Of a stretch of DNA of 5,683 nt, positions 1-5,683 are shown piece after piece; position 1 is the first letter of the stretch; every line of letters begins with the position of its first letter. Position numbers and translations under genes: made by a program. The notes under the pieces are model-generated. The model saw only the letters and a program-made list of their open reading frames with translations. It did not search any database and had not been told where the DNA came from. Source of the DNA: a virus; IMG/VR virus record IMGVR_UViG_3300045988_020466, positions 1-5,683 of that record. One strand, 5' to 3'.

Positions 1-55
1 GCGACTTCTACTTCTTCTTCATCCCGTCGCGTCTGCTCTGGGAACACTTCGAAAA
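1..55. repeat. Terminal redundancy: 1..55 is identical to 5629..5683, so the window is a circular genome of 5628 nt opened inside the VP1 gene
   Basis: Exact 55-nt match (gcgacttctacttcttcttcatcccgtcgcgtctgctctgggaacacttcgaaaa) at both window ends. The reading frame is continuous across the junction, since 5628 is a multiple of 3. Confidence 0.9.
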
Positions 56-1370
56 CCTGATGGGACAAAACGACTCCACCTTCTGGGCAGAGAACGTGGA
101 ATACACAACGCCGAAAACAACTGCGCCGGAAGGCGGCTGGAAAGTGGGAACGCTGGCAGACTACTTCGGCATTCCGACCGGGGTAGCAAACCTTCAGGTA
201 AACTCACTGCCGTTCAGAGCATATGCAAAAGTCTGGAACGAATGGTTCAGAGACGAAAACCTGCAGCAGCCTGTCACGATGAGCAAGACAGACGCAACGA
301 CCGCAGGAAGCAATACCGGCACGAACCTCACGGACGCAGAAGCGGGCGGTCTGCCGCTGAAAGTGTGCAAGTACAAAGACTACTTCACAAGCTGCCTGCC
401 GAGTCCGCAGAAGGGCGAGGCTGTAAAGCTGCCCATGAGCGGTAACGCACCGGTTCTGGGGTACAAAACAGCACAAAGAGAAACGCCCAATGATGGCAAA
501 TACCCTCAAGGCCCAATTAGCAGCCTTGAAAGCTATCCCGCACTAATGGGCGTGGCGGGCTCGACACCGACGGGAACCGTATACCTTGGTGCAAGACTCG
601 ACCAATTAACCGCAGCAACGATCAACGAGTTACGCCAGGCGATCGCAGTGCAACACATCCTGGAACGCGATGCCAGAACCGGCACCAGGTACAAAGAGTA
701 CCTCAAAGGGGCGTGGGGTGTGACGAGTCCTGATGCACGTCTTGACCGGTCGGAGTACATCGGCGGCTACAGACTGCCCATCAACATCAACCAGGTCATC
801 CAGACATCGGCGACCGACACGACCAGTCCGCAGGGCAACACGGCAGCGTTCTCCATGACAACCATGAGCCGGAACATGGCTACCTACTCGGCGACCGAAC
901 ACGGCTTTATCCTGGGCCTGGCAGCGGTGCGAGTAGATCACAGCTATCAGCAGGGCTTGTCTCGTATGTGGACGCGCAGCACTCGCTTCAGCTACTATGA
1001 CCCGATGCTCGCAAACCTCGGCGAGCAGGCAGTGCTTAATCAGGAGATCTATGCACAGGGTACGGCGGTGGACGAAGAGGTCTTCGGCTATCAGGAAGCA
1101 TGGGCGGATTATCGCTACCGCACCAACATGATCACCGGCGAAATGCGCAGCACCTACAAGCAGACTCTGGACGCATGGCACTATGCAGACAAGTACGACA
1201 AGCTGCCTACTCTCTCCAGTGACTGGATCAAAGAGGGTACGGAGAACATCGATCGCACGATTGCAGTGCAGTCGGACAACAGCCGTCAGTTTATCTGCAA
1301 CTTCTACTTCGACCAGACATGGACGCGGGCGATGCCGATCTACAGCCTGCCGGGCCTCGATACGATCTAA
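1..1370 (+). CDS. VP1: Major capsid protein VP1 (gokushovirus F-like), C-terminal 456 codons; the N-terminal part is at 5409..5628 across the circular junction, giving about 529 aa in total
   Basis: Long ORF ending at TAA 1368-1370. It is in frame with the ORF starting at ATG 5409. The joined N-terminus MNRNAEQHYSQVPHANVPRARFKRDYSLLTTMNEGDLVPIYCDEVLPADT...DNCYCDFYFFFIPSRLLWEHFENL matches the conserved gokushovirus VP1 N-terminal region from memory. Size is typical for VP1. Confidence 0.88.
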   Translation, partial: DFYFFFIPSRLLWEHFENLMGQNDSTFWAENVEYTTPKTTAPEGGWKVGTLADYFGIPTGVANLQVNSLPFRAYAKVWNEWFRDENLQQPVTMSKTDATTAGSNTGTNLTDAEAGGLPLKVCKYKDYFTSCLPSPQKGEAVKLPMSGNAPVLGYKTAQRETPNDGKYPQGPISSLESYPALMGVAGSTPTGTVYLGARLDQLTAATINELRQAIAVQHILERDARTGTRYKEYLKGAWGVTSPDARLDRSEYIGGYRLPININQVIQTSATDTTSPQGNTAAFSMTTMSRNMATYSATEHGFILGLAAVRVDHSYQQGLSRMWTRSTRFSYYDPMLANLGEQAVLNQEIYAQGTAVDEEVFGYQEAWADYRYRTNMITGEMRSTYKQTLDAWHYADKYDKLPTLSSDWIKEGTENIDRTIAVQSDNSRQFICNFYFDQTWTRAMPIYSLPGLDTI

Positions 1371-1382
1371 GGAGGTGCAGCA

Positions 1383-2309
1383 ATGGCACTATCCTTGATG
1401 GGCCTGATCAAGGGCGGTCTGACTCTGGCAAGCACGCTGTCGAGCATCTACAGCAGCATCAAAGGGAGCACCTCGAGCGCAAGACAGCAAGGCACGATGC
1501 AAAACACTGTCCAAAGCGGCACGACCACGGGAACAACCGCACAGGACACCACGAGCACAGGCGGGAGCACTCAGACCGGCAACACCGGAGCGCTGGGAAA
1601 CCTGCTGTCAACGGCTCTGGGAACGCCTACAGGCAACAACGCCGGAGCAGCAGCAGAGTTTAATGCAGGTCAGACACAGACAGCCAACAATCTGCAAAAC
1701 GGTATGTGGAGCCTGGGCAACGTCATCAACCTGGGAAGTATGCTGGCATCCAACGCGATGAGTGCAGCAAGCCAAAGCAGCGCTATGCGGTACAACTCCA
1801 AAGAGGCCAAAGCTCAAAGAGACTGGCAGGAGCGTATGAGCAGCACAAGCTATCAAAGAGGCGTGGCAGACCTCAAAGCAGCAGGGCTCAACCCTGTACT
1901 GGCAGCATATAACGGCTTTGGAGAACAGACGCCGTCGGGCGGCTACGGAAGTCTGGGCGGGGGTCAGACCTTCGGCCATACTCAGGCTATGGCAATACCA
2001 ACGGCAAAAAATGCGACCATGCAAGCCATGTACGACTATGGCAACAACACAGCCCAGATCGTCGAGAACTATCAAAATGCCATCAACAGTGCAAAGCAGT
2101 CCTCGGACTACTGGACAGCCGAACACCTCGAACAGATGCAGCAGCAGACCGTGAGCAGCAGCGCTCAGACCGTGGGTCAGCTGGCCGAAGCCGAAAGGAG
2201 CAGCAGCGCTCAGACCTCGAACACCAGAGAGACCACCGACAGCAAACAGACCAACGTAGCCGGTGAGCTGTCCGGTGAATGGACAAACAAAAAACAGGGC
2301 AGAAGATAG
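1383..2309 (+). CDS. VP2: Minor capsid / DNA pilot protein VP2 (308 aa)
   Basis: Strong RBS AAGGAGG at 1369-1375 lies 7 nt before ATG 1383. The product is Gly/Ser/Thr/Gln-rich and low-complexity, with the conserved core AQRDWQERMSSTSYQRGVADLKAAGLNPVLA typical of gokushovirus VP2. It sits immediately downstream of VP1, as in gokushoviruses. Confidence 0.8.
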   Translation: MALSLMGLIKGGLTLASTLSSIYSSIKGSTSSARQQGTMQNTVQSGTTTGTTAQDTTSTGGSTQTGNTGALGNLLSTALGTPTGNNAGAAAEFNAGQTQTANNLQNGMWSLGNVINLGSMLASNAMSAASQSSAMRYNSKEAKAQRDWQERMSSTSYQRGVADLKAAGLNPVLAAYNGFGEQTPSGGYGSLGGGQTFGHTQAMAIPTAKNATMQAMYDYGNNTAQIVENYQNAINSAKQSSDYWTAEHLEQMQQQTVSSSAQTVGQLAEAERSSSAQTSNTRETTDSKQTNVAGELSGEWTNKKQGRR

Positions 2310-2338
2310 TTGACAAACACAGAAAAGGGGTGTATATT
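2310..2338 (+). promoter_or_regulatory. Sigma70-type promoter P1: TTGACA (2310-2315), 17-nt spacer, TATATT (2333-2338) preceded by TG
   Basis: Consensus -35 hexamer, 17-bp spacer, and a 5/6 -10 hexamer. It lies directly after the VP2 stop and about 40 nt upstream of the RBS and ATG of the 70-aa ORF. Confidence 0.6.
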
Positions 2339-2378
2339 ATGAGTGTACCAATCACACACTTAGGTTAGGAGGATAACC

Positions 2379-2591
2379 ATGAGGAGTCAGATCACAAAGA
2401 GATTTAACATCAACCTGACAGATAAAGAACAGGCAGCACTAAAAAACCTGACGGAAGAGTATGCAAACCGAAACTGGAAAGCAAACACTTCAGACATCAT
2501 CAGGGACGCTATCGTATACTACAGCGAAAAGATGACAGACTATAAAATTGCAGCAGAAGCAATCAGCGAAGAGGAAGACTTGCCCTTCTAA
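2379..2591 (+). CDS. 70-aa ribbon-helix-helix (Arc/MetJ/CopG-like) putative DNA-binding transcriptional regulator
   Basis: RBS AGGAGG at 2367-2372 lies 6 nt before ATG 2379. The N-terminus KRFNINLTD has an alternating polar/hydrophobic beta-strand pattern with basic residues. It is followed by helix A (KEQAALKNLTEEYA), a short turn, and helix B starting with an N-cap (NTSDIIRDAIVYY). This is the classic RHH topology. The fold assignment is by eye only. Confidence 0.5.
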   Translation: MRSQITKRFNINLTDKEQAALKNLTEEYANRNWKANTSDIIRDAIVYYSEKMTDYKIAAEAISEEEDLPF

Positions 2592-2602
2592 GAGACGATT
2601 TT

Positions 2603-2618
2603 GCCGGGCAGACCCGGC
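2603..2618 (+). other. Short GC-rich hairpin (GCCGGG-caga-CCCGGC) downstream of the RHH ORF; a U-run (2645-2650) follows at a distance
   Basis: 6-bp perfect GC stem with a 4-nt loop. The T-tract is about 25 nt downstream, so this is not a canonical intrinsic terminator. Confidence 0.25.
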
Positions 2619-2671
2619 CAAATCTGCAACATTTATCCATAGGTTTTTTTAAGAAAGTGCTAAATTTTGTG

Positions 2672-2716
2672 TCAGTGGGCCCCTATAACATCAAGAGGGT
2701 TATAGGGGCCCACTGA
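2672..2716. repeat. Perfect 18-bp inverted repeat with a 9-nt loop (tcagtgggcccctataac-atcaagagg-gttataggggcccactga), immediately upstream of the VP4 gene
   Basis: The left arm 2672-2689 is the exact reverse complement of the right arm 2699-2716. It is the largest perfect palindrome in the genome. No T-tract follows it, so it is not a standard terminator. Confidence 0.85.
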
Positions 2717-2737
2717 GGAAAGGCGCAGCGAAACTAT

Positions 2738-3847
2738 ATGTCATGTACAAGACCGCTCGTCAGAATACCGACAAAAGATGGTGATTACCGCGTAGTAAGC
2801 CTAAAAGGATACTTGAGTCACAGCGGTAAAAACCTCGAAATAGTCGCAGATAAAGAGCGTCAGAACCTGAACGAGAAAAAAATCAAAGAGCTGATAAGGG
2901 ACCAGGAAGCGCAGCTGCTACCGTGCGGACAATGTCCGGGATGCAAAATGGCAGCAGCATCCAGCTGGGCGAACAGAATGGAGCTAGAGCTTCCGTATCA
3001 TCAGAATGCGTGGTTTATCACGTTTACATACGATGACGAGAACGTGCCATACCGAATGACATGGGACGAAGGAACAGGCGAAATGCTGGTAGAAAATTAC
3101 AGTCTCCGCTACGAAGACATGCAGAAATTCTGGAAACGCCTCAGAAGGTACATGGAGTATCACAAGATAAACAACGGAAAACTGATGTACTTCCAGTGTG
3201 GTGAATATGGTGGAAAAACACACAGACCACATTATCATGCGATCGTGTACGACATACCATTCACCAAAGAAGACCTAAAGGTCTACAAAAAGAAAAACGG
3301 CGCTGTATATTACAACGTCGATTGGTTTACCGAACTATGGGGCATGGGCCATGTGGTCATCGCAGCAGCAGAGTGGAAAGCGATGGCATACACAGCAAGA
3401 TACACCACGAAAAAGGTCTATGGAAAGGAAGGAAAAGAATTTTACAAAGAGCTGGGAATTTTACCTGAGAAGTGCAGCATGAGCAAAAGACCAGCGATTG
3501 GAGCAAAATACTTCGAAGAACATAGCGAAGAAATCTATGCAAAAGACAAAATCCAGCTGAAGAACGGAAAAGTTTGCAAACCGCCAAGGTATTTTGATAA
3601 GCTATACGATGCACAGTGTCTGAGAAAACCACTCACAGACAAAGAGGTAGAAGACATTGAGCTGACAATAGAAAAAGCCGAGTCCGATGAGCTCAAAGCG
3701 ATAAAGAGAAAACGTCGCAAGTTAGCAAACGACGCACTCTTCGCCAAGCTCAAGCAGAACAACGGCTTAACCATGCAAGAGTATTATAACAAAGAGGAAC
3801 AGAAAATACAAGACAGGTTCAGAAAACTCATCCGGGAAGAAATCTAA
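2738..3847 (+). CDS. VP4: Replication initiator protein VP4 (HUH rolling-circle endonuclease, phiX174 gpA-like), 369 aa
   Basis: Motif I FITFTYDD, motif II HRPHYHAIVYDIPF (HUH), and motif III AYTARYTTKKVYG (two catalytic Tyr spaced as in phiX174 gpA YVAKYVNKK) are present. There is an N-terminal MSCTRPL and a CGQCPGC zinc-ribbon-like motif. All of this is typical of gokushovirus VP4. Confidence 0.88.
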   Translation: MSCTRPLVRIPTKDGDYRVVSLKGYLSHSGKNLEIVADKERQNLNEKKIKELIRDQEAQLLPCGQCPGCKMAAASSWANRMELELPYHQNAWFITFTYDDENVPYRMTWDEGTGEMLVENYSLRYEDMQKFWKRLRRYMEYHKINNGKLMYFQCGEYGGKTHRPHYHAIVYDIPFTKEDLKVYKKKNGAVYYNVDWFTELWGMGHVVIAAAEWKAMAYTARYTTKKVYGKEGKEFYKELGILPEKCSMSKRPAIGAKYFEEHSEEIYAKDKIQLKNGKVCKPPRYFDKLYDAQCLRKPLTDKEVEDIELTIEKAESDELKAIKRKRRKLANDALFAKLKQNNGLTMQEYYNKEEQKIQDRFRKLIREEI

Positions 3848-3871
3848 GGAACGGCTAAATAAGGGAATGCA

Positions 3872-3910
3872 GACGGCGTGGCCTCGAAAGGCTGCGCCGT
3901 CCTTTTCATT
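3872..3910 (+). terminator. Rho-independent terminator after VP4
   Basis: A 12-bp GC-rich stem (gacggcgtggcc / ggctgcgccgtc, with two G-U pairs in RNA) and a 6-nt loop, followed by CUUUUCAUU. Confidence 0.6.
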
Positions 3911-3953
3911 CGGCGCACCGCGCCGACCGGACGGCCTTAAACTCAAAAAGTGC

Positions 3954-3982
3954 TTGACAAGTGTATAATTTAGGTGTATAAT
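3954..3982 (+). promoter_or_regulatory. Perfect-consensus sigma70 promoter P2: TTGACA (3954-3959), 17-nt spacer, TATAAT (3977-3982)
   Basis: Both hexamers match consensus exactly with optimal 17-bp spacing. It lies 28 nt upstream of ATG 4010. It contains tandem GTGTATAAT repeats. Confidence 0.7.
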
Positions 3983-4009
3983 AAAGGTGTAGAAAGGACG
4001 GTGCTTAAA

Positions 4010-4192
4010 ATGACCGAAATCGAAAAAATCAAAAAGAGCATCCAGAACCAGATAGATCAACAGGAAAGAAACTACTACAAAGACCTTAAGAGCAAAGCAA
4101 AGCACACAGATGGTACAGAGATGTACAAAGTAGACAGCCACAAAATCGAAGCGCTGGAAGTAGCACTGAGAATAATCGAAATGTATGAATAA
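4010..4192 (+). CDS. Hypothetical 60-aa highly charged, helical protein (MTEIEKIKKSIQNQIDQQERNYYKDLKSKAKHTDGTEMYKVDSHKIEALEVALRIIEMYE)
   Basis: ATG 4010 lies downstream of the predicted P2 start site, with AAAGGA 11 nt upstream. The GTG at 3974 given in the ORF track lies inside the -10 element and is unlikely to be the start. The ORF is flanked by its own promoter and terminator. I do not recognise a family. Confidence 0.55.
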   Translation: MTEIEKIKKSIQNQIDQQERNYYKDLKSKAKHTDGTEMYKVDSHKIEALEVALRIIEMYE

Positions 4193-4195
4193 ACC

Positions 4196-4242
4196 AAAAA
4201 ACGTGAGGTTGACGAAAATCAGCCTTGCGTTTTTTTTTTTTT
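4196..4242 (+). terminator. Rho-independent terminator, a hairpin flanked by an A-tract and a 13-T tract, which could also act bidirectionally
   Basis: The structure is aaaaaacg-tga-GGTTGA-cgaaaa-TCAGCC-ttg-cgtttttttttttttt. The stem is interrupted, with 13 consecutive T at 4230-4242. It lies immediately after the stop of the 60-aa ORF. Confidence 0.6.
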
Positions 4243-4250
4243 GGTAAAAT
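4242..4250 (+). promoter_or_regulatory. Candidate extended -10 promoter (TGgTAAAAT) for the late gene cluster
   Basis: It matches the TGnTAnAAT pattern. No good -35 is present: TTGCGT lies 14 nt upstream, which is suboptimal. It sits upstream of the VP8-like / VP5 / VP3 / VP1 cluster. Confidence 0.3.
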
Positions 4251-4353
4251 TGACATAGAAAACCAGCACCACAAAACGAAAGGAGAAAGCTGCCTCCAGT
4301 GCTGGTGATCTGTGCTTCATTTATACAAATATGGAAAGAAGGGAGGTGTTGCC

Positions 4354-4458
4354 ATGATCACTTTAAAAGACGTGAAGGGTATCTTCAACCAGCTGCGCAA
4401 GATTTTGGCCATGCTGGATAAGATTTACCACGCACTCAACCTGGATAAGGAGGAATAA
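4354..4458 (+). CDS. Hypothetical 34-aa amphipathic helical peptide (MITLKDVKGIFNQLRKILAMLDKIYHALNLDKEE)
   Basis: Strong RBS GAAGGGAGG lies 7 nt upstream of ATG 4354. The stop is 1 nt before the next gene's ATG. It is a small ORF of uncertain reality. Confidence 0.4.
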   Translation: MITLKDVKGIFNQLRKILAMLDKIYHALNLDKEE

Positions 4459-4459
4459 T

Positions 4460-4579
4460 ATGGCACATCGTATGCCGGTCAACCCGAAAAAGGACAAGCG
4501 GGTGTTTACCAACACCGCGAAGAAAACCAAGAAGATCAACGTCAACCCGAAGCCGTCGAGAGGAGGCATCAGGCTGTGA
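4460..4579 (+). CDS. VP8: Small basic DNA-binding protein (gokushovirus ORF8/VP8-like, phiX174 J analogue), 39 aa
   Basis: RBS AAGGAGG at 4448-4454 lies 5 nt before ATG 4460. The product MAHRMPVNPKKDKRVFTNTAKKTKKINVNPKPSRGGIRL is very K/R-rich and ends in RGGIRL. This resembles the C-terminal RGGIRF of the chlamydiaphage ORF8 protein, as I recall it. Confidence 0.6.
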   Translation: MAHRMPVNPKKDKRVFTNTAKKTKKINVNPKPSRGGIRL

Positions 4580-4668
4580 ACGAAGTACAGCTTATCATCA
4601 AGGTAATAACGCTCAGTCTGCTCATCGCAGATCTGTACATGATCGTCAAAATGATTCGGAGGAAATAA
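4576..4668 (+). CDS. 30-aa single-pass transmembrane peptide (MNEVQLIIKVITLSLLIADLYMIVKMIRRK), a candidate lysis or membrane peptide
   Basis: The GTG start overlaps the TGA stop of the upstream gene (ctGTGA). The RBS GAGAGGAGG (4558-4566) lies 9 nt upstream. The product has a roughly 22-residue hydrophobic core and a basic C-terminal tail (RRK). Its stop is 2 nt before the VP5 ATG. Confidence 0.4.
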   Translation: MNEVQLIIKVITLSLLIADLYMIVKMIRRK

Positions 4669-4670
4669 AG

Positions 4671-4934
4671 ATGGAATTCCAGATATACGCAATCAAGGAC
4701 GAACTTGCCGGGACCTTCGGCAATCTGATGGTGGTCAACGAAAAGGTGGCCGATCGAACAATGAAGTGGATGGCCCAGGAGATGGAGAAGGCCGACTGCG
4801 AAGATAAGCGGGTCTATCTGATGGGCAGCTACGACAACGAGACCGGCCTGATCAGGCCGGAGCAGATGCCGCGTCTGAGCTACAATCTCGAGTTGATGAA
4901 AAAGGAGCAGACGAATGGGAGTCAGAATCTTTAA
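4671..4934 (+). CDS. VP5: VP5-like protein (gokushovirus ORF5; ssDNA synthesis / phiX174 C analogue), 87 aa
   Basis: RBS GGAGG lies 7 nt before ATG 4671. The N-terminal pattern MEFQIYAIKDELAGTFGNLMVVNEKVADRTMKW...EDKRVYLMGSYDNETGLI follows the conserved VP5 signature (IY..KD..a..F..p......A.R.f ... ED..ly.lG.fD.eTG.i). It lies just upstream of VP3, as expected. Confidence 0.6.
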   Translation: MEFQIYAIKDELAGTFGNLMVVNEKVADRTMKWMAQEMEKADCEDKRVYLMGSYDNETGLIRPEQMPRLSYNLELMKKEQTNGSQNL

Positions 4935-5412
4935 GCCCTACGAGGACGAAAAACCGGTGGCACTGCCGAACGAACCGGGAAACCGGTTTGAGCCGGAGTA
5001 CAAGGAGCGGTATGATGACCGCGGACAGCCGTACCTTGAAAAGGTGGGCGAGGTGGACACCTACGAGAAAATCCAGAGCTACAAGGACGAGTGTGACGTT
5101 ATGGCTATCCTGAGCCGATACGCTGCCGGAGACGAGAGCGTCCTGGCAAAACCGGGGTGGTACATCGACACCAGCAAGCTGCCGAAGACCTATACCGAAT
5201 ACATGAACCTGATGAACGAGAAGCGGGAAGAGTTTAACCAACTGCCGCTCAGTATTCGCCAGGCATTCGGCATGAACTTCGAAAACTGGATGGCAACAGC
5301 CGGTGAACAGGAGTGGCTGGACAAAATGGGCATCAAAATTCAGCAGAATGCACAAGAAAAGGTCGATGCTGCCATCGAAGATGTTGTGCAGAAAGGAGAA
5401 AATAAAGAATGA
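4915..5412 (+). CDS. VP3: Internal scaffolding protein VP3 (165 aa)
   Basis: RBS AAAGGAG lies 7 nt before ATG 4915. It overlaps the VP5 3' end by 20 nt in another frame. Its stop overlaps the VP1 start (ATGA at 5409-5412). The product is acidic, with EKIQSYKDECDVMAILSRYAAGD and LPLSIRQAF regions like gokushovirus VP3. It sits directly before VP1. Confidence 0.65.
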   Translation: MGVRIFKPYEDEKPVALPNEPGNRFEPEYKERYDDRGQPYLEKVGEVDTYEKIQSYKDECDVMAILSRYAAGDESVLAKPGWYIDTSKLPKTYTEYMNLMNEKREEFNQLPLSIRQAFGMNFENWMATAGEQEWLDKMGIKIQQNAQEKVDAAIEDVVQKGENKE

Positions 5413-5683
5413 ACCGCAATGCTGAACAGCACTACTCTCAAGTTCCTCATGCAAACGTACCGCGAGCGAGATTCAAGCGAGACTACTCGCTGTTGACGAC
5501 CATGAACGAAGGAGACCTCGTCCCGATCTACTGTGATGAGGTGTTGCCGGCCGACACGGCAAAGATCAACCTGAACGCTCTGATGCGCATGAGCACACCG
5601 CTGTATCCGGTTATGGATAACTGTTACTGCGACTTCTACTTCTTCTTCATCCCGTCGCGTCTGCTCTGGGAACACTTCGAAAA
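5409..5683 (+). CDS. VP1: Major capsid protein VP1, N-terminal part, continuing at window position 1 through the circular junction (5629..5683 duplicates 1..55)
   Basis: ATG 5409 is preceded by an in-frame TAA at 5403-5405 and by RBS AAAGGAG 10 nt upstream. The translation MNRNAEQHYSQVPHANVPRARFKRDYSLL... is the canonical gokushovirus VP1 N-terminus, and the frame is continuous with 3..1370. Confidence 0.85.
   Translation, partial: MNRNAEQHYSQVPHANVPRARFKRDYSLLTTMNEGDLVPIYCDEVLPADTAKINLNALMRMSTPLYPVMDNCYCDFYFFFIPSRLLWEHFE

Follow-up and report, generated by a model that had tools for sequence, protein, structure and literature searches.

What function should be assigned to a long and perfect palindrome that stands directly in front of a replication initiator gene in the genome of a single-stranded DNA (ssDNA) phage? 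The question is raised by the IMG/VR virus record IMGVR_UViG_3300045988_020466, of which positions 1 to 5,683 (the whole stretch of DNA analysed here, referred to as the window) contain the genome of a gokushovirus. Positions 1-55 of the window are identical to positions 5629-5683, and the genome is therefore circular and complete, with 5628 unique bases and a 55-nt terminal repeat. The palindrome lies in a non-coding gap of 146 nt between the stop codon of a small RHH-like open reading frame (ORF) and the ATG of VP4 at position 2738, and it ends 21 nt before this ATG. VP4 is a rolling-circle replication initiator.

A preliminary description of this locus had offered several functions for the palindrome side by side. 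Our data favour one of them: we consider it probable (at roughly 0.68, or about two chances in three) that the palindrome represents the viral-strand (double-strand) origin of rolling-circle replication, with VP4 cutting CTTG^AT in the loop. An origin beside the rep gene had been among the earlier suggestions. The conserved loop motif had been overlooked; it lies antisense to VP4 and to all other genes of the window, and hence the term "plus strand" changes its meaning in this genome.

The hairpin and its conservation among close relatives

The two arms of the palindrome (2672-2689, TCAGTGGGCCCCTATAAC, and 2699-2716, GTTATAGGGGCCCACTGA) are complementary at 18 of 18 positions. The loop of 9 nt between them reads ATCAAGAGG on the + strand and CCTCTTGAT on the minus strand, which gives 5'-TCAGTGGGCCCCTATAAC CCTCTTGAT GTTATAGGGGCCCACTGA-3' for the minus-strand reading of the hairpin; a minus-strand oligonucleotide of the site reads 5'-CTATAACCCTCTTGATGTTATAG-3'. 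This confirms the exact stem and loop and their placement in the gap before VP4, as described previously. The palindrome is the longest inverted repeat of the window; in 5.6 kb of random sequence, perfect hairpins with stems of 18 bp or more would be expected about 1.5e-6 times. Folding as ssDNA yields -21.0 kcal/mol for the + strand and -20.6 kcal/mol for the - strand, with z scores of -7.8 and -9.6, respectively, against dinucleotide shuffles. The motif CTTGAT occupies the 3' end of the minus-strand loop (Table 1); the other four copies of CTTGAT in the window correspond to chance frequency and are located outside hairpins.

The set of close relatives comprised four GenBank genomes and 33 IMG/VR contigs, with VP4 sequences 61-95% identical to that of the window. 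In all 31 relatives having upstream sequence, the hairpin is found 21-26 nt upstream of the VP4 ATG. Compensatory changes of the stem include two G-C pairs replaced by A-T, one T-A pair replaced by A-T, and a closing pair changed from C-G to G-C, and one relative carries an extra base pair by additions in both arms. Among 19 distinct sequences, 96% of cells are paired, and double changes occur in 4 of the 19 pairs; the covariation score was reached by none of 500 shuffles, and slid registers fall to 26-49% paired. The first seven bases at the 5' side of the loop (ATCAAGA on the + strand) never vary, and the last two or three bases do. ATCAAGA is invariant across 24 distinct sequences from two clades, the VP4 proteins of which are 34% identical. 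This pattern indicates that selection preserves base pairing of the arms but the sequence itself of the loop. The comparison with relatives, which had been recommended previously as a check, has thus found the stem conserved and covarying and the loop conserved, an outcome strongly in favour of an origin beside rep.

The second of these two clades includes L072, L079 and L083 and has its hairpin downstream of VP4. It shares with the window clade the outer stem and its 5' flank, GTGTCAGTGGGCC (window 2668-2684). In addition, several clades with the loop motif on the coding strand (see below) have GTGGG..CCCAC in their outer stems.

The loop motif in Gokushovirinae and the initiator VP4

The survey of hairpins was extended to about 230 further gokushovirus contigs from three profile-guided scans, and to Chp2, SpV4 and phiMH2K. 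Whole loci were scanned for perfect stems of at least 9 bp, many of the elements being located downstream of VP4, and all loci were oriented by VP4 for the assignment of the motif to a strand. The motif CTTG[AT][TC] was found in a hairpin loop at 99 of the 108 loci having any perfect hairpin of at least 9 bp, and this hairpin is the longest of its locus in 87 of the 99. The 69 distinct hairpins yield the consensus yy[A/T]CTTGAT for the 3' side of their loops. The loop end usually reads [A/T]CTTGAT, less often CTTGTT or CTTGTC, and either abuts the 3' arm or precedes it by a few bases. Stems covary within clades and are unrelated in sequence between clades, yet they remain perfect, as for example in AGCCCAGTACCT-TACTTGAT-AGGTACTGGGCT and TAGCACAGTTAC-CTTACTTGAT-GTAACTGTGCTA. 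Chp2 (CTAGCGTATAACAG-TCTACTTGAT-CTGTTATACGCTAG), SpV4 (loop containing ..ACTTGTTATA) and phiMH2K (loop containing ..CTACTTGTTGTAA) carry the motif on the coding strand, and the window hairpin, read on the minus strand, obeys the same loop rule. In other clades the hairpin stands just upstream or downstream of VP4, in some of them about 700 nt away. Antisense calls of a mismatch-tolerant scan for L070, L103 and L183 were discarded as false; inspection found coding-strand hairpins in L070 (cut by the locus end) and L103. The second example hairpin is near-identical in many aquatic and environmental gokushoviruses (L152, L158, L162, L164, L172, L173, L175 and others), the VP4 proteins of which are just 51-55% identical to that of the environmental reference contig L133.

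The same motif is present in phages of Chlamydia and Spiroplasma, in prophage L204 of a spore-forming Firmicute, and in metagenomes from gut and aquatic samples. Constancy across such hosts argues for a reader encoded by the virus rather than for a host priming protein. In the open-access literature searched, we found no description of a gokushovirus replication origin, of this hairpin, of its loop rule, or of antisense packaging in Microviridae; outside it an older description of such a hairpin, for example in the sequence papers on Chp1, Chp2 or SpV4, may exist.

The core of the loop is a known nick site. In the RefSeq entry of phiX174 the rep_origin is annotated at base 4306, in the sequence CCCCCAACTTG^ATATTAATAAC (CAACTTG^ATATTAATAAC). 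The gene A protein of phiX174 cleaves between that G and A, i.e. CTTG^AT. The origin consensus of the pC194/pUB110 plasmid family is ...TCTTATCTTGATA / ...TTCTTATCTTGATA (PMC5031790), and constructs with origins of this type have been reported (PMC7072734). With the phiX174 recognition sequence CAACTTGATA the window loop CCTCTTGAT matches at 6 of 10 bases, which form the CTTGAT core, and many gokushoviruses carry TACTTGAT. The chance of a loop matching the phiX174/pC194 nick core is about 5e-4 per loop. Residues H165/H167 and Y218/Y222/K225/K226 of VP4 are retained without exception in 15 distant homologues, and the motifs EYGGKTHRPHYHA and AYTARYTTKK parallel EYGTANGRLHFHA and FYVAKYVNKK of phiX174 protein A. 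A loop with a known nick core, together with a VP4 bearing the catalytic motifs of phiX174 protein A, therefore suggests a viral-strand origin nicked by VP4. Three features that characterize rolling-circle origins are found side by side in the window, namely a stable stem-loop under selection, a loop matching an initiator cleavage site, and an HUH initiator adjacent to it (VP4, 21 nt downstream). Given that the motif is independent of the host and identical with the nick core, and given the signature of VP4, a double-strand origin is the best explanation of these data.

Based on this dataset, we hypothesize a mechanism in which the 18-bp arms would form the hairpin in the supercoiled replicative form or in ssDNA, and would thereby expose the loop 5'-CCTCTTGAT-3' as a single strand. 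VP4, an HUH/two-tyrosine enzyme homologous to phiX174 protein A, would cut CTTG^AT. Both the cut within the loop and the exact bond are predictions from this homology; in the window the nick would fall between the complements of positions 2692 and 2691. VP4 would be joined to the 5' end, and the 3'-OH would prime displacement synthesis. After one round, the regenerated site would be cut and rejoined, and a circular single strand would be freed for packaging. The stem, with an outer part (GTGGG..CCCAC) that recurs in several clades, probably confers binding specificity for VP4, and the shared outer stem may be the VP4 binding determinant.

Comparison with known origins displays both likeness and difference. 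The window site shares with the phiX174 origin the core CTTGAT (ACTTGAT in many gokushoviruses), a homologous HUH/YxxxY initiator, and a location in or beside rep. A strict phiX174-type origin was nevertheless rejected. The window site is intergenic, placed in a hairpin loop and antisense to VP4, whereas the phiX174 site lies without a hairpin on the coding (viral) strand and requires a 30-bp region with an AT-rich spacer. Two observations weigh against the assignment of the palindrome as an origin: the phiX174 origin is not in a hairpin and is located inside gene A, so that the analogy spans the core of 6-7 nt and the enzyme family only, and the window loop reads TCTTGAT where phiX174 has ACTTGAT. 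The double-strand origin of pC194/pUB110 resembles the window site in its nick core CTTGATA, in the short inverted repeat (CTTAT/ATAAG) by which it is flanked, and in rolling-circle replication via an HUH initiator. It differs in that these are plasmids without encapsidation, with a much shorter stem and with a Rep of another family (VP4 matches PF23343). Origins of CRESS-DNA viruses (circo-, gemini- and nanoviruses) and of pT181/pMV158 plasmids likewise combine a covarying stem by rep with a conserved nick sequence in its loop, and in several CRESS-type virus families it is normal for genes to be antisense or ambisense to the strand that is packaged. However, their loop motifs are others (NANTATTAC and others), there is no sequence relation to the window hairpin, and the CRESS Rep has one catalytic tyrosine and an SF3 helicase, unlike the two-tyrosine VP4.

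Alternative functions and neighbouring features

Replicons of ssDNA also require an origin for the complementary strand, and such sites are intergenic hairpins. The palindrome might therefore be read by host primase, by the PriA primosome or by RNA polymerase on virion DNA coated with single-stranded DNA-binding protein, after the models of the phiX174 n' site, the G4 oric, and plasmid single-strand origin (sso) elements. The stem is very stable as DNA, and intergenic hairpins near Rep with conserved loops and compensatory stem changes have been reported for reekeekee- and roodoodoo-microviruses, the authors leaving their function open and leaning to negative-strand priming (PMC9865509). These hairpins belong to other clades of Microviridae and are likened to the window hairpin by description, not by sequence. 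We consider this function unlikely, as host priming signals vary by bacterium, whereas phages of Chlamydia, of Spiroplasma, of Firmicutes and of gut and aquatic hosts have one and the same loop motif. Moreover, the motif equals the Rep nick site, and a second conserved hairpin (2597-2624) is available for the role. The phiX174 n' (PriA) site and the G4 complementary-strand origin resemble the palindrome as stable intergenic microvirus hairpins acting on the single strand, but they are read by host proteins, differ between phages of different hosts, and follow no CTTGAT loop rule. Quite improbable, in our view, is a packaging signal that would be read on the single strand by VP5, by a small basic DNA-binding protein, or by the procapsid. 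An element occurring once per genome, strand-specific and throughout the subfamily would suit such a signal, and the VP5 family is annotated as DNA binding (phrog_1670), but the identity with the phiX174/pC194 nick core would then be a coincidence, with the low probability per loop given above. In addition, the packaging specificity of phiX174 comes from the origin-bound initiator, with no separate signal. Both functions had been raised previously, and with a loop that is constant across hosts and equals the Rep nick site they appear conceivable, but less likely. Either of them would likewise place the functional single strand on the antisense side, and a complementary-strand origin would imply antisense packaging in this genome as well.

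An RNA element in the RHH-VP4 transcript (an attenuator, a hairpin for processing or stability, or a regulator of VP4 translation) appears very improbable. Transcription of the region probably starts from the promoter-like sequence at 2310-2338, and the hairpin would be very stable as RNA and located 21 nt before the VP4 AUG, beside a GAGG. Against this stand the missing U-tract and the absence of Rfam matches at E <= 1 on both strands of the whole window. Furthermore, the motif occurs in both orientations to transcription as well as upstream and downstream of VP4, so that the RNA would contain AUCAAG in some clades and CUUGAU in others. An intrinsic terminator was rejected in agreement with the preliminary description: the sequence after the stem reads GGAAAGG on the + strand and CACAAAA on the - strand, a T-run after the hairpin is absent on both, and the terminator scan does not list it. 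Occlusion of the VP4 ribosome binding site, a further earlier proposal, was not supported, because the stem overlaps just 2-4 nt of the weak GAGG, 20 nt from the ATG, and because the orientation of the motif to transcription varies by clade. A side effect of the hairpin on VP4 expression in the window clade is possible. A palindromic, non-coding element just downstream of an RHH gene may further bring to mind a recombination site (dif-like XerCD, attP, or dimer resolution) or a symmetric operator for the dimeric RHH protein; we regard both as highly doubtful. Some gokushoviruses integrate via dif-like motifs, most gokushoviruses lack such motifs, and dif is a site of 28 bp with the layout 11-6-11 (PMC7062461), whereas the arms of the window palindrome have 18 bp and the spacer 9-10 nt. 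The additional base pair in both arms of one relative would be incompatible with a rigid site for a dimeric protein. In the integrated relative L204, an intact CTTGAT hairpin lies about 170 nt from the prophage end, the junction being at a different palindrome, and prophages of the window clade were not found in 185,579 species genomes. As for the operator, the RHH gene is limited to the window clade, where it falls to 37-50% identity with unchanged arms, and the hairpin is found throughout the subfamily without an RHH gene; this earlier suggestion was not supported.

The prophage L204 (7957-13042, corresponding to L205 1-5086) is a complete gokushovirus of 5086 bp, integrated in a contig of 112.8 kb just after a radA-like gene. 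Its host is a spore-forming bacterium, with CotJA/CotJB and Cas1/Cas2 nearby. The left junction coincides with an 18-bp palindrome (CCCCAAATTGAACAAAAT-TTTT-ATTTTGTTCAATTTGGGG), the 13-mer of which is copied at both phage ends. L204/L205 is a temperate Firmicute gokushovirus with an attachment site unlike the dif of E. coli.

The nearest relative of the window is Human gut gokushovirus KX513873 (97% identity), followed by three pig-faeces Microviridae with about 88% identity. All recognisable genes are located on one strand (Table 1), and the gene calls of the preliminary description were upheld for VP4 as well as for VP1, VP2, VP3 and VP5. The RHH-like ORF is clade-specific and fast-evolving, with tblastn matches in the window clade only, from 98% down to 37% identity; it is regarded as context, and the hairpin can be explained without it. 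The promoter-like sequence upstream of it is kept in relatives L001-L004, and is followed, within 2310-2378, by short repeats GTGTA..GTGTAC..CACACAC, to which the RHH protein might actually bind as its operator. The order of promoter, small RHH gene and rep gene resembles copG-repB of pMV158. The second, smaller hairpin folds at -10.8 / -11.7 kcal/mol and is kept in L001-L004 with changes in the loop only, even in L004 with its very divergent RHH gene. A T-run after it is absent. It could be a candidate site of complementary-strand initiation, or a transcript end.

Further elements were seen downstream of VP4. These are a terminator-like hairpin of 13 pairs (3872-3901) on its 3' side, a perfect sigma-70 consensus TTGACA-17-TATAAT (3954-3982), an ORF of 72 amino acids without family match (3974-4192), and a long A/T-flanked hairpin (4196-4235) resembling a bidirectional terminator. 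Within the VP5 coding region, at 4843-4860, there is a short overlapping palindrome, CCGGCCTGATCAGGCCGG.

Table 1. Features of the window, with coordinates, strand and remarks.
Feature	Position	Strand	Remarks
Origin-type hairpin	2672-2716	- (informative strand)	18-bp perfect stem, 9-nt loop
CTTGAT motif, 3' end of minus-strand loop	2690-2695	-	
VP1	runs across window ends	+	gene call of the preliminary description upheld
VP2	1383-2309	+	
Sigma-70-like promoter TTGACA-17-TATATT	2310-2338	+	upstream of RHH-VP4 gene pair; consensus match only
RHH-like ORF, 70 amino acids	2379-2591	+	weak matches only: phrog_4085 at 5e-5; PF19020 below cut-off
Second, smaller hairpin GATTT-t-GCCGGG-caga-CCCGGC-c-AAATC	2597-2624		directly 3' of RHH stop codon
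VP4/Rep, rolling-circle replication initiator (HUH, two tyrosines)	2738-3847	+	PF23343; phrog_942 (replication initiator)
VP5	4671-4934	+	phrog_1670 family, annotated DNA binding
VP3	4915-5412	+	

Motif orientation and the polarity of the packaged strand

Most aquatic contigs and several gut clades carry the loop motif on the coding strand, as do Chp2, SpV4 and phiMH2K. The entire window clade carries it on the antisense strand, together with four neighbouring clades from the gut; in these neighbours the hairpin stands 7 nt upstream or just downstream of VP4. Neighbour joining of VP4 sequences placed the antisense-motif clades together in a single large group. Isolated antisense cases among coding-strand relatives are L073 (hairpin at 1133-1170), the nearest VP4 of which is that of L116 with 46% identity, and L256, the VP1 of which is 65-69% identical to those of coding-strand relatives. 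A search of IMG/VR for further relatives of L073 returned L073 alone. By sequence comparison, L073 and L256 look like independent polarity switches. Four-fold sites of L073 and L256 contain A at.69 and.75, respectively, and the antisense motif thus co-occurs with strong A-richness in three lineages that are separate on VP4/VP1 comparisons, i.e. the large gut clade, L073 and L256.

Phages with ssDNA genomes favour T-ending codons, a preference for which C>T damage of the single-stranded DNA is considered responsible (PMC3278643, PMC4032129). Four-fold sites of gut contigs with the motif on the coding strand contain 42-69% T and 6-17% A, and those of all antisense-motif contigs contain 27-54% A and near 11% T. 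The coding strand of the window clade displays A of.27-.45 and T of.10-.15, and the values of the window itself are A.27, C.30, G.31 and T.11. GC skew did not cleanly separate the two classes of motif orientation.

Substitutions were counted by parsimony among close relatives, with rates per site and in coding-strand notation. In the window clade (VP1, VP2 and VP4 pooled), G>A exceeds C>T (149 vs 42, p 1e-19) and C>A exceeds G>T (73 vs 27, p 2e-4). In six other antisense-motif groups, G>A is above C>T in 13 of 15 gene sets, and C>A is above G>T in 15 of 15. Three groups with the motif on the coding strand have rates of C>T vs G>A of 2.6 vs 0.8, 2.5 vs 0.8 and 0.64 vs 0.11, and in groups of this orientation G>T is equal to or higher than C>A. 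A fourth coding-strand group (L085) has a merely nominal excess of C>T (0.67 vs 0.42, p 0.47) and a significant excess of G>T over C>A. Parsimony bias under skewed composition would oppose this asymmetry, not create it. Substitutions of the damage type that is typical of ssDNA (C>T, G>T) thus fall on whichever strand bears the loop CTTGAT, and in the window this is the antisense strand.

As the motif is complementary to all genes, the strand displaced from such an origin, and encapsidated, would be antisense to the mRNAs. We see an even chance that the window clade packages this strand, as motif orientation and the mirrored substitution asymmetry indirectly suggest, which would be the opposite of phiX174, Chp2 and SpV4. 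Damage of the types C>T and G>T would then build up on the antisense strand and would lead to a mirror codon bias, with NNA preferred and NNT avoided. The odds appear equally balanced for the wider proposal that the large clade of human- and pig-gut gokushoviruses, and at least L073 and L256, may be negative-sense microviruses that arose via inversion of the origin loop. Inversion of the loop between perfectly palindromic arms would shift the VP4 nick site to the other strand and leave the stem unchanged. With arms that form a perfect inverted repeat of 18 bp, such a switch is readily conceivable, and we offer it as a hypothesis.

Several observations weigh against this interpretation. Some contigs with the motif on the coding strand are A-rich, with four-fold AT skews of +0.60 (L160), +0.46 (L219), +0.45 (L254) and at least +0.38 (L210), and phiMH2K (L139), of the same motif orientation, has +0.31. 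The window clade also shows more T>A than A>T, an excess that selection for NNA codons would account for as well as mutation. The antisense class is mostly one large clade, which leaves three independent events, and the trees are simple neighbour-joining trees or lists of best hits. T-richness of a strand was not accepted as proof that this strand is packaged, since some coding-strand-motif lineages are A-rich. Some of these A-rich genomes also have a very low G content (5-7% in L160 and phiMH2K), and the orientation model does not account for compositions of this kind.

Gokushovirinae dominate the ssDNA viromes of gut and aquatic habitats. With few exceptions, a candidate origin could be located in the gokushovirus genomes examined by a long hairpin with [A/T]CTTGAT at its loop end, and the loop rule ties this subfamily to the nick site of phiX174 and pC194. 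Microviridae are described as positive-sense viruses; if the nick site sets the packaged strand, a major gut clade would be negative-sense. If true, this would affect the reading of viromes from ssDNA libraries that retain the strand, and likewise the interpretation of codon bias and mutation spectra of ssDNA phages. Encounters of replication and transcription on the replicative form would be head-on rather than co-directional, and the design of synthetic gokushovirus genomes would be concerned as well. Inversion of a hairpin loop would then represent a very simple route by which an ssDNA virus may change its polarity.

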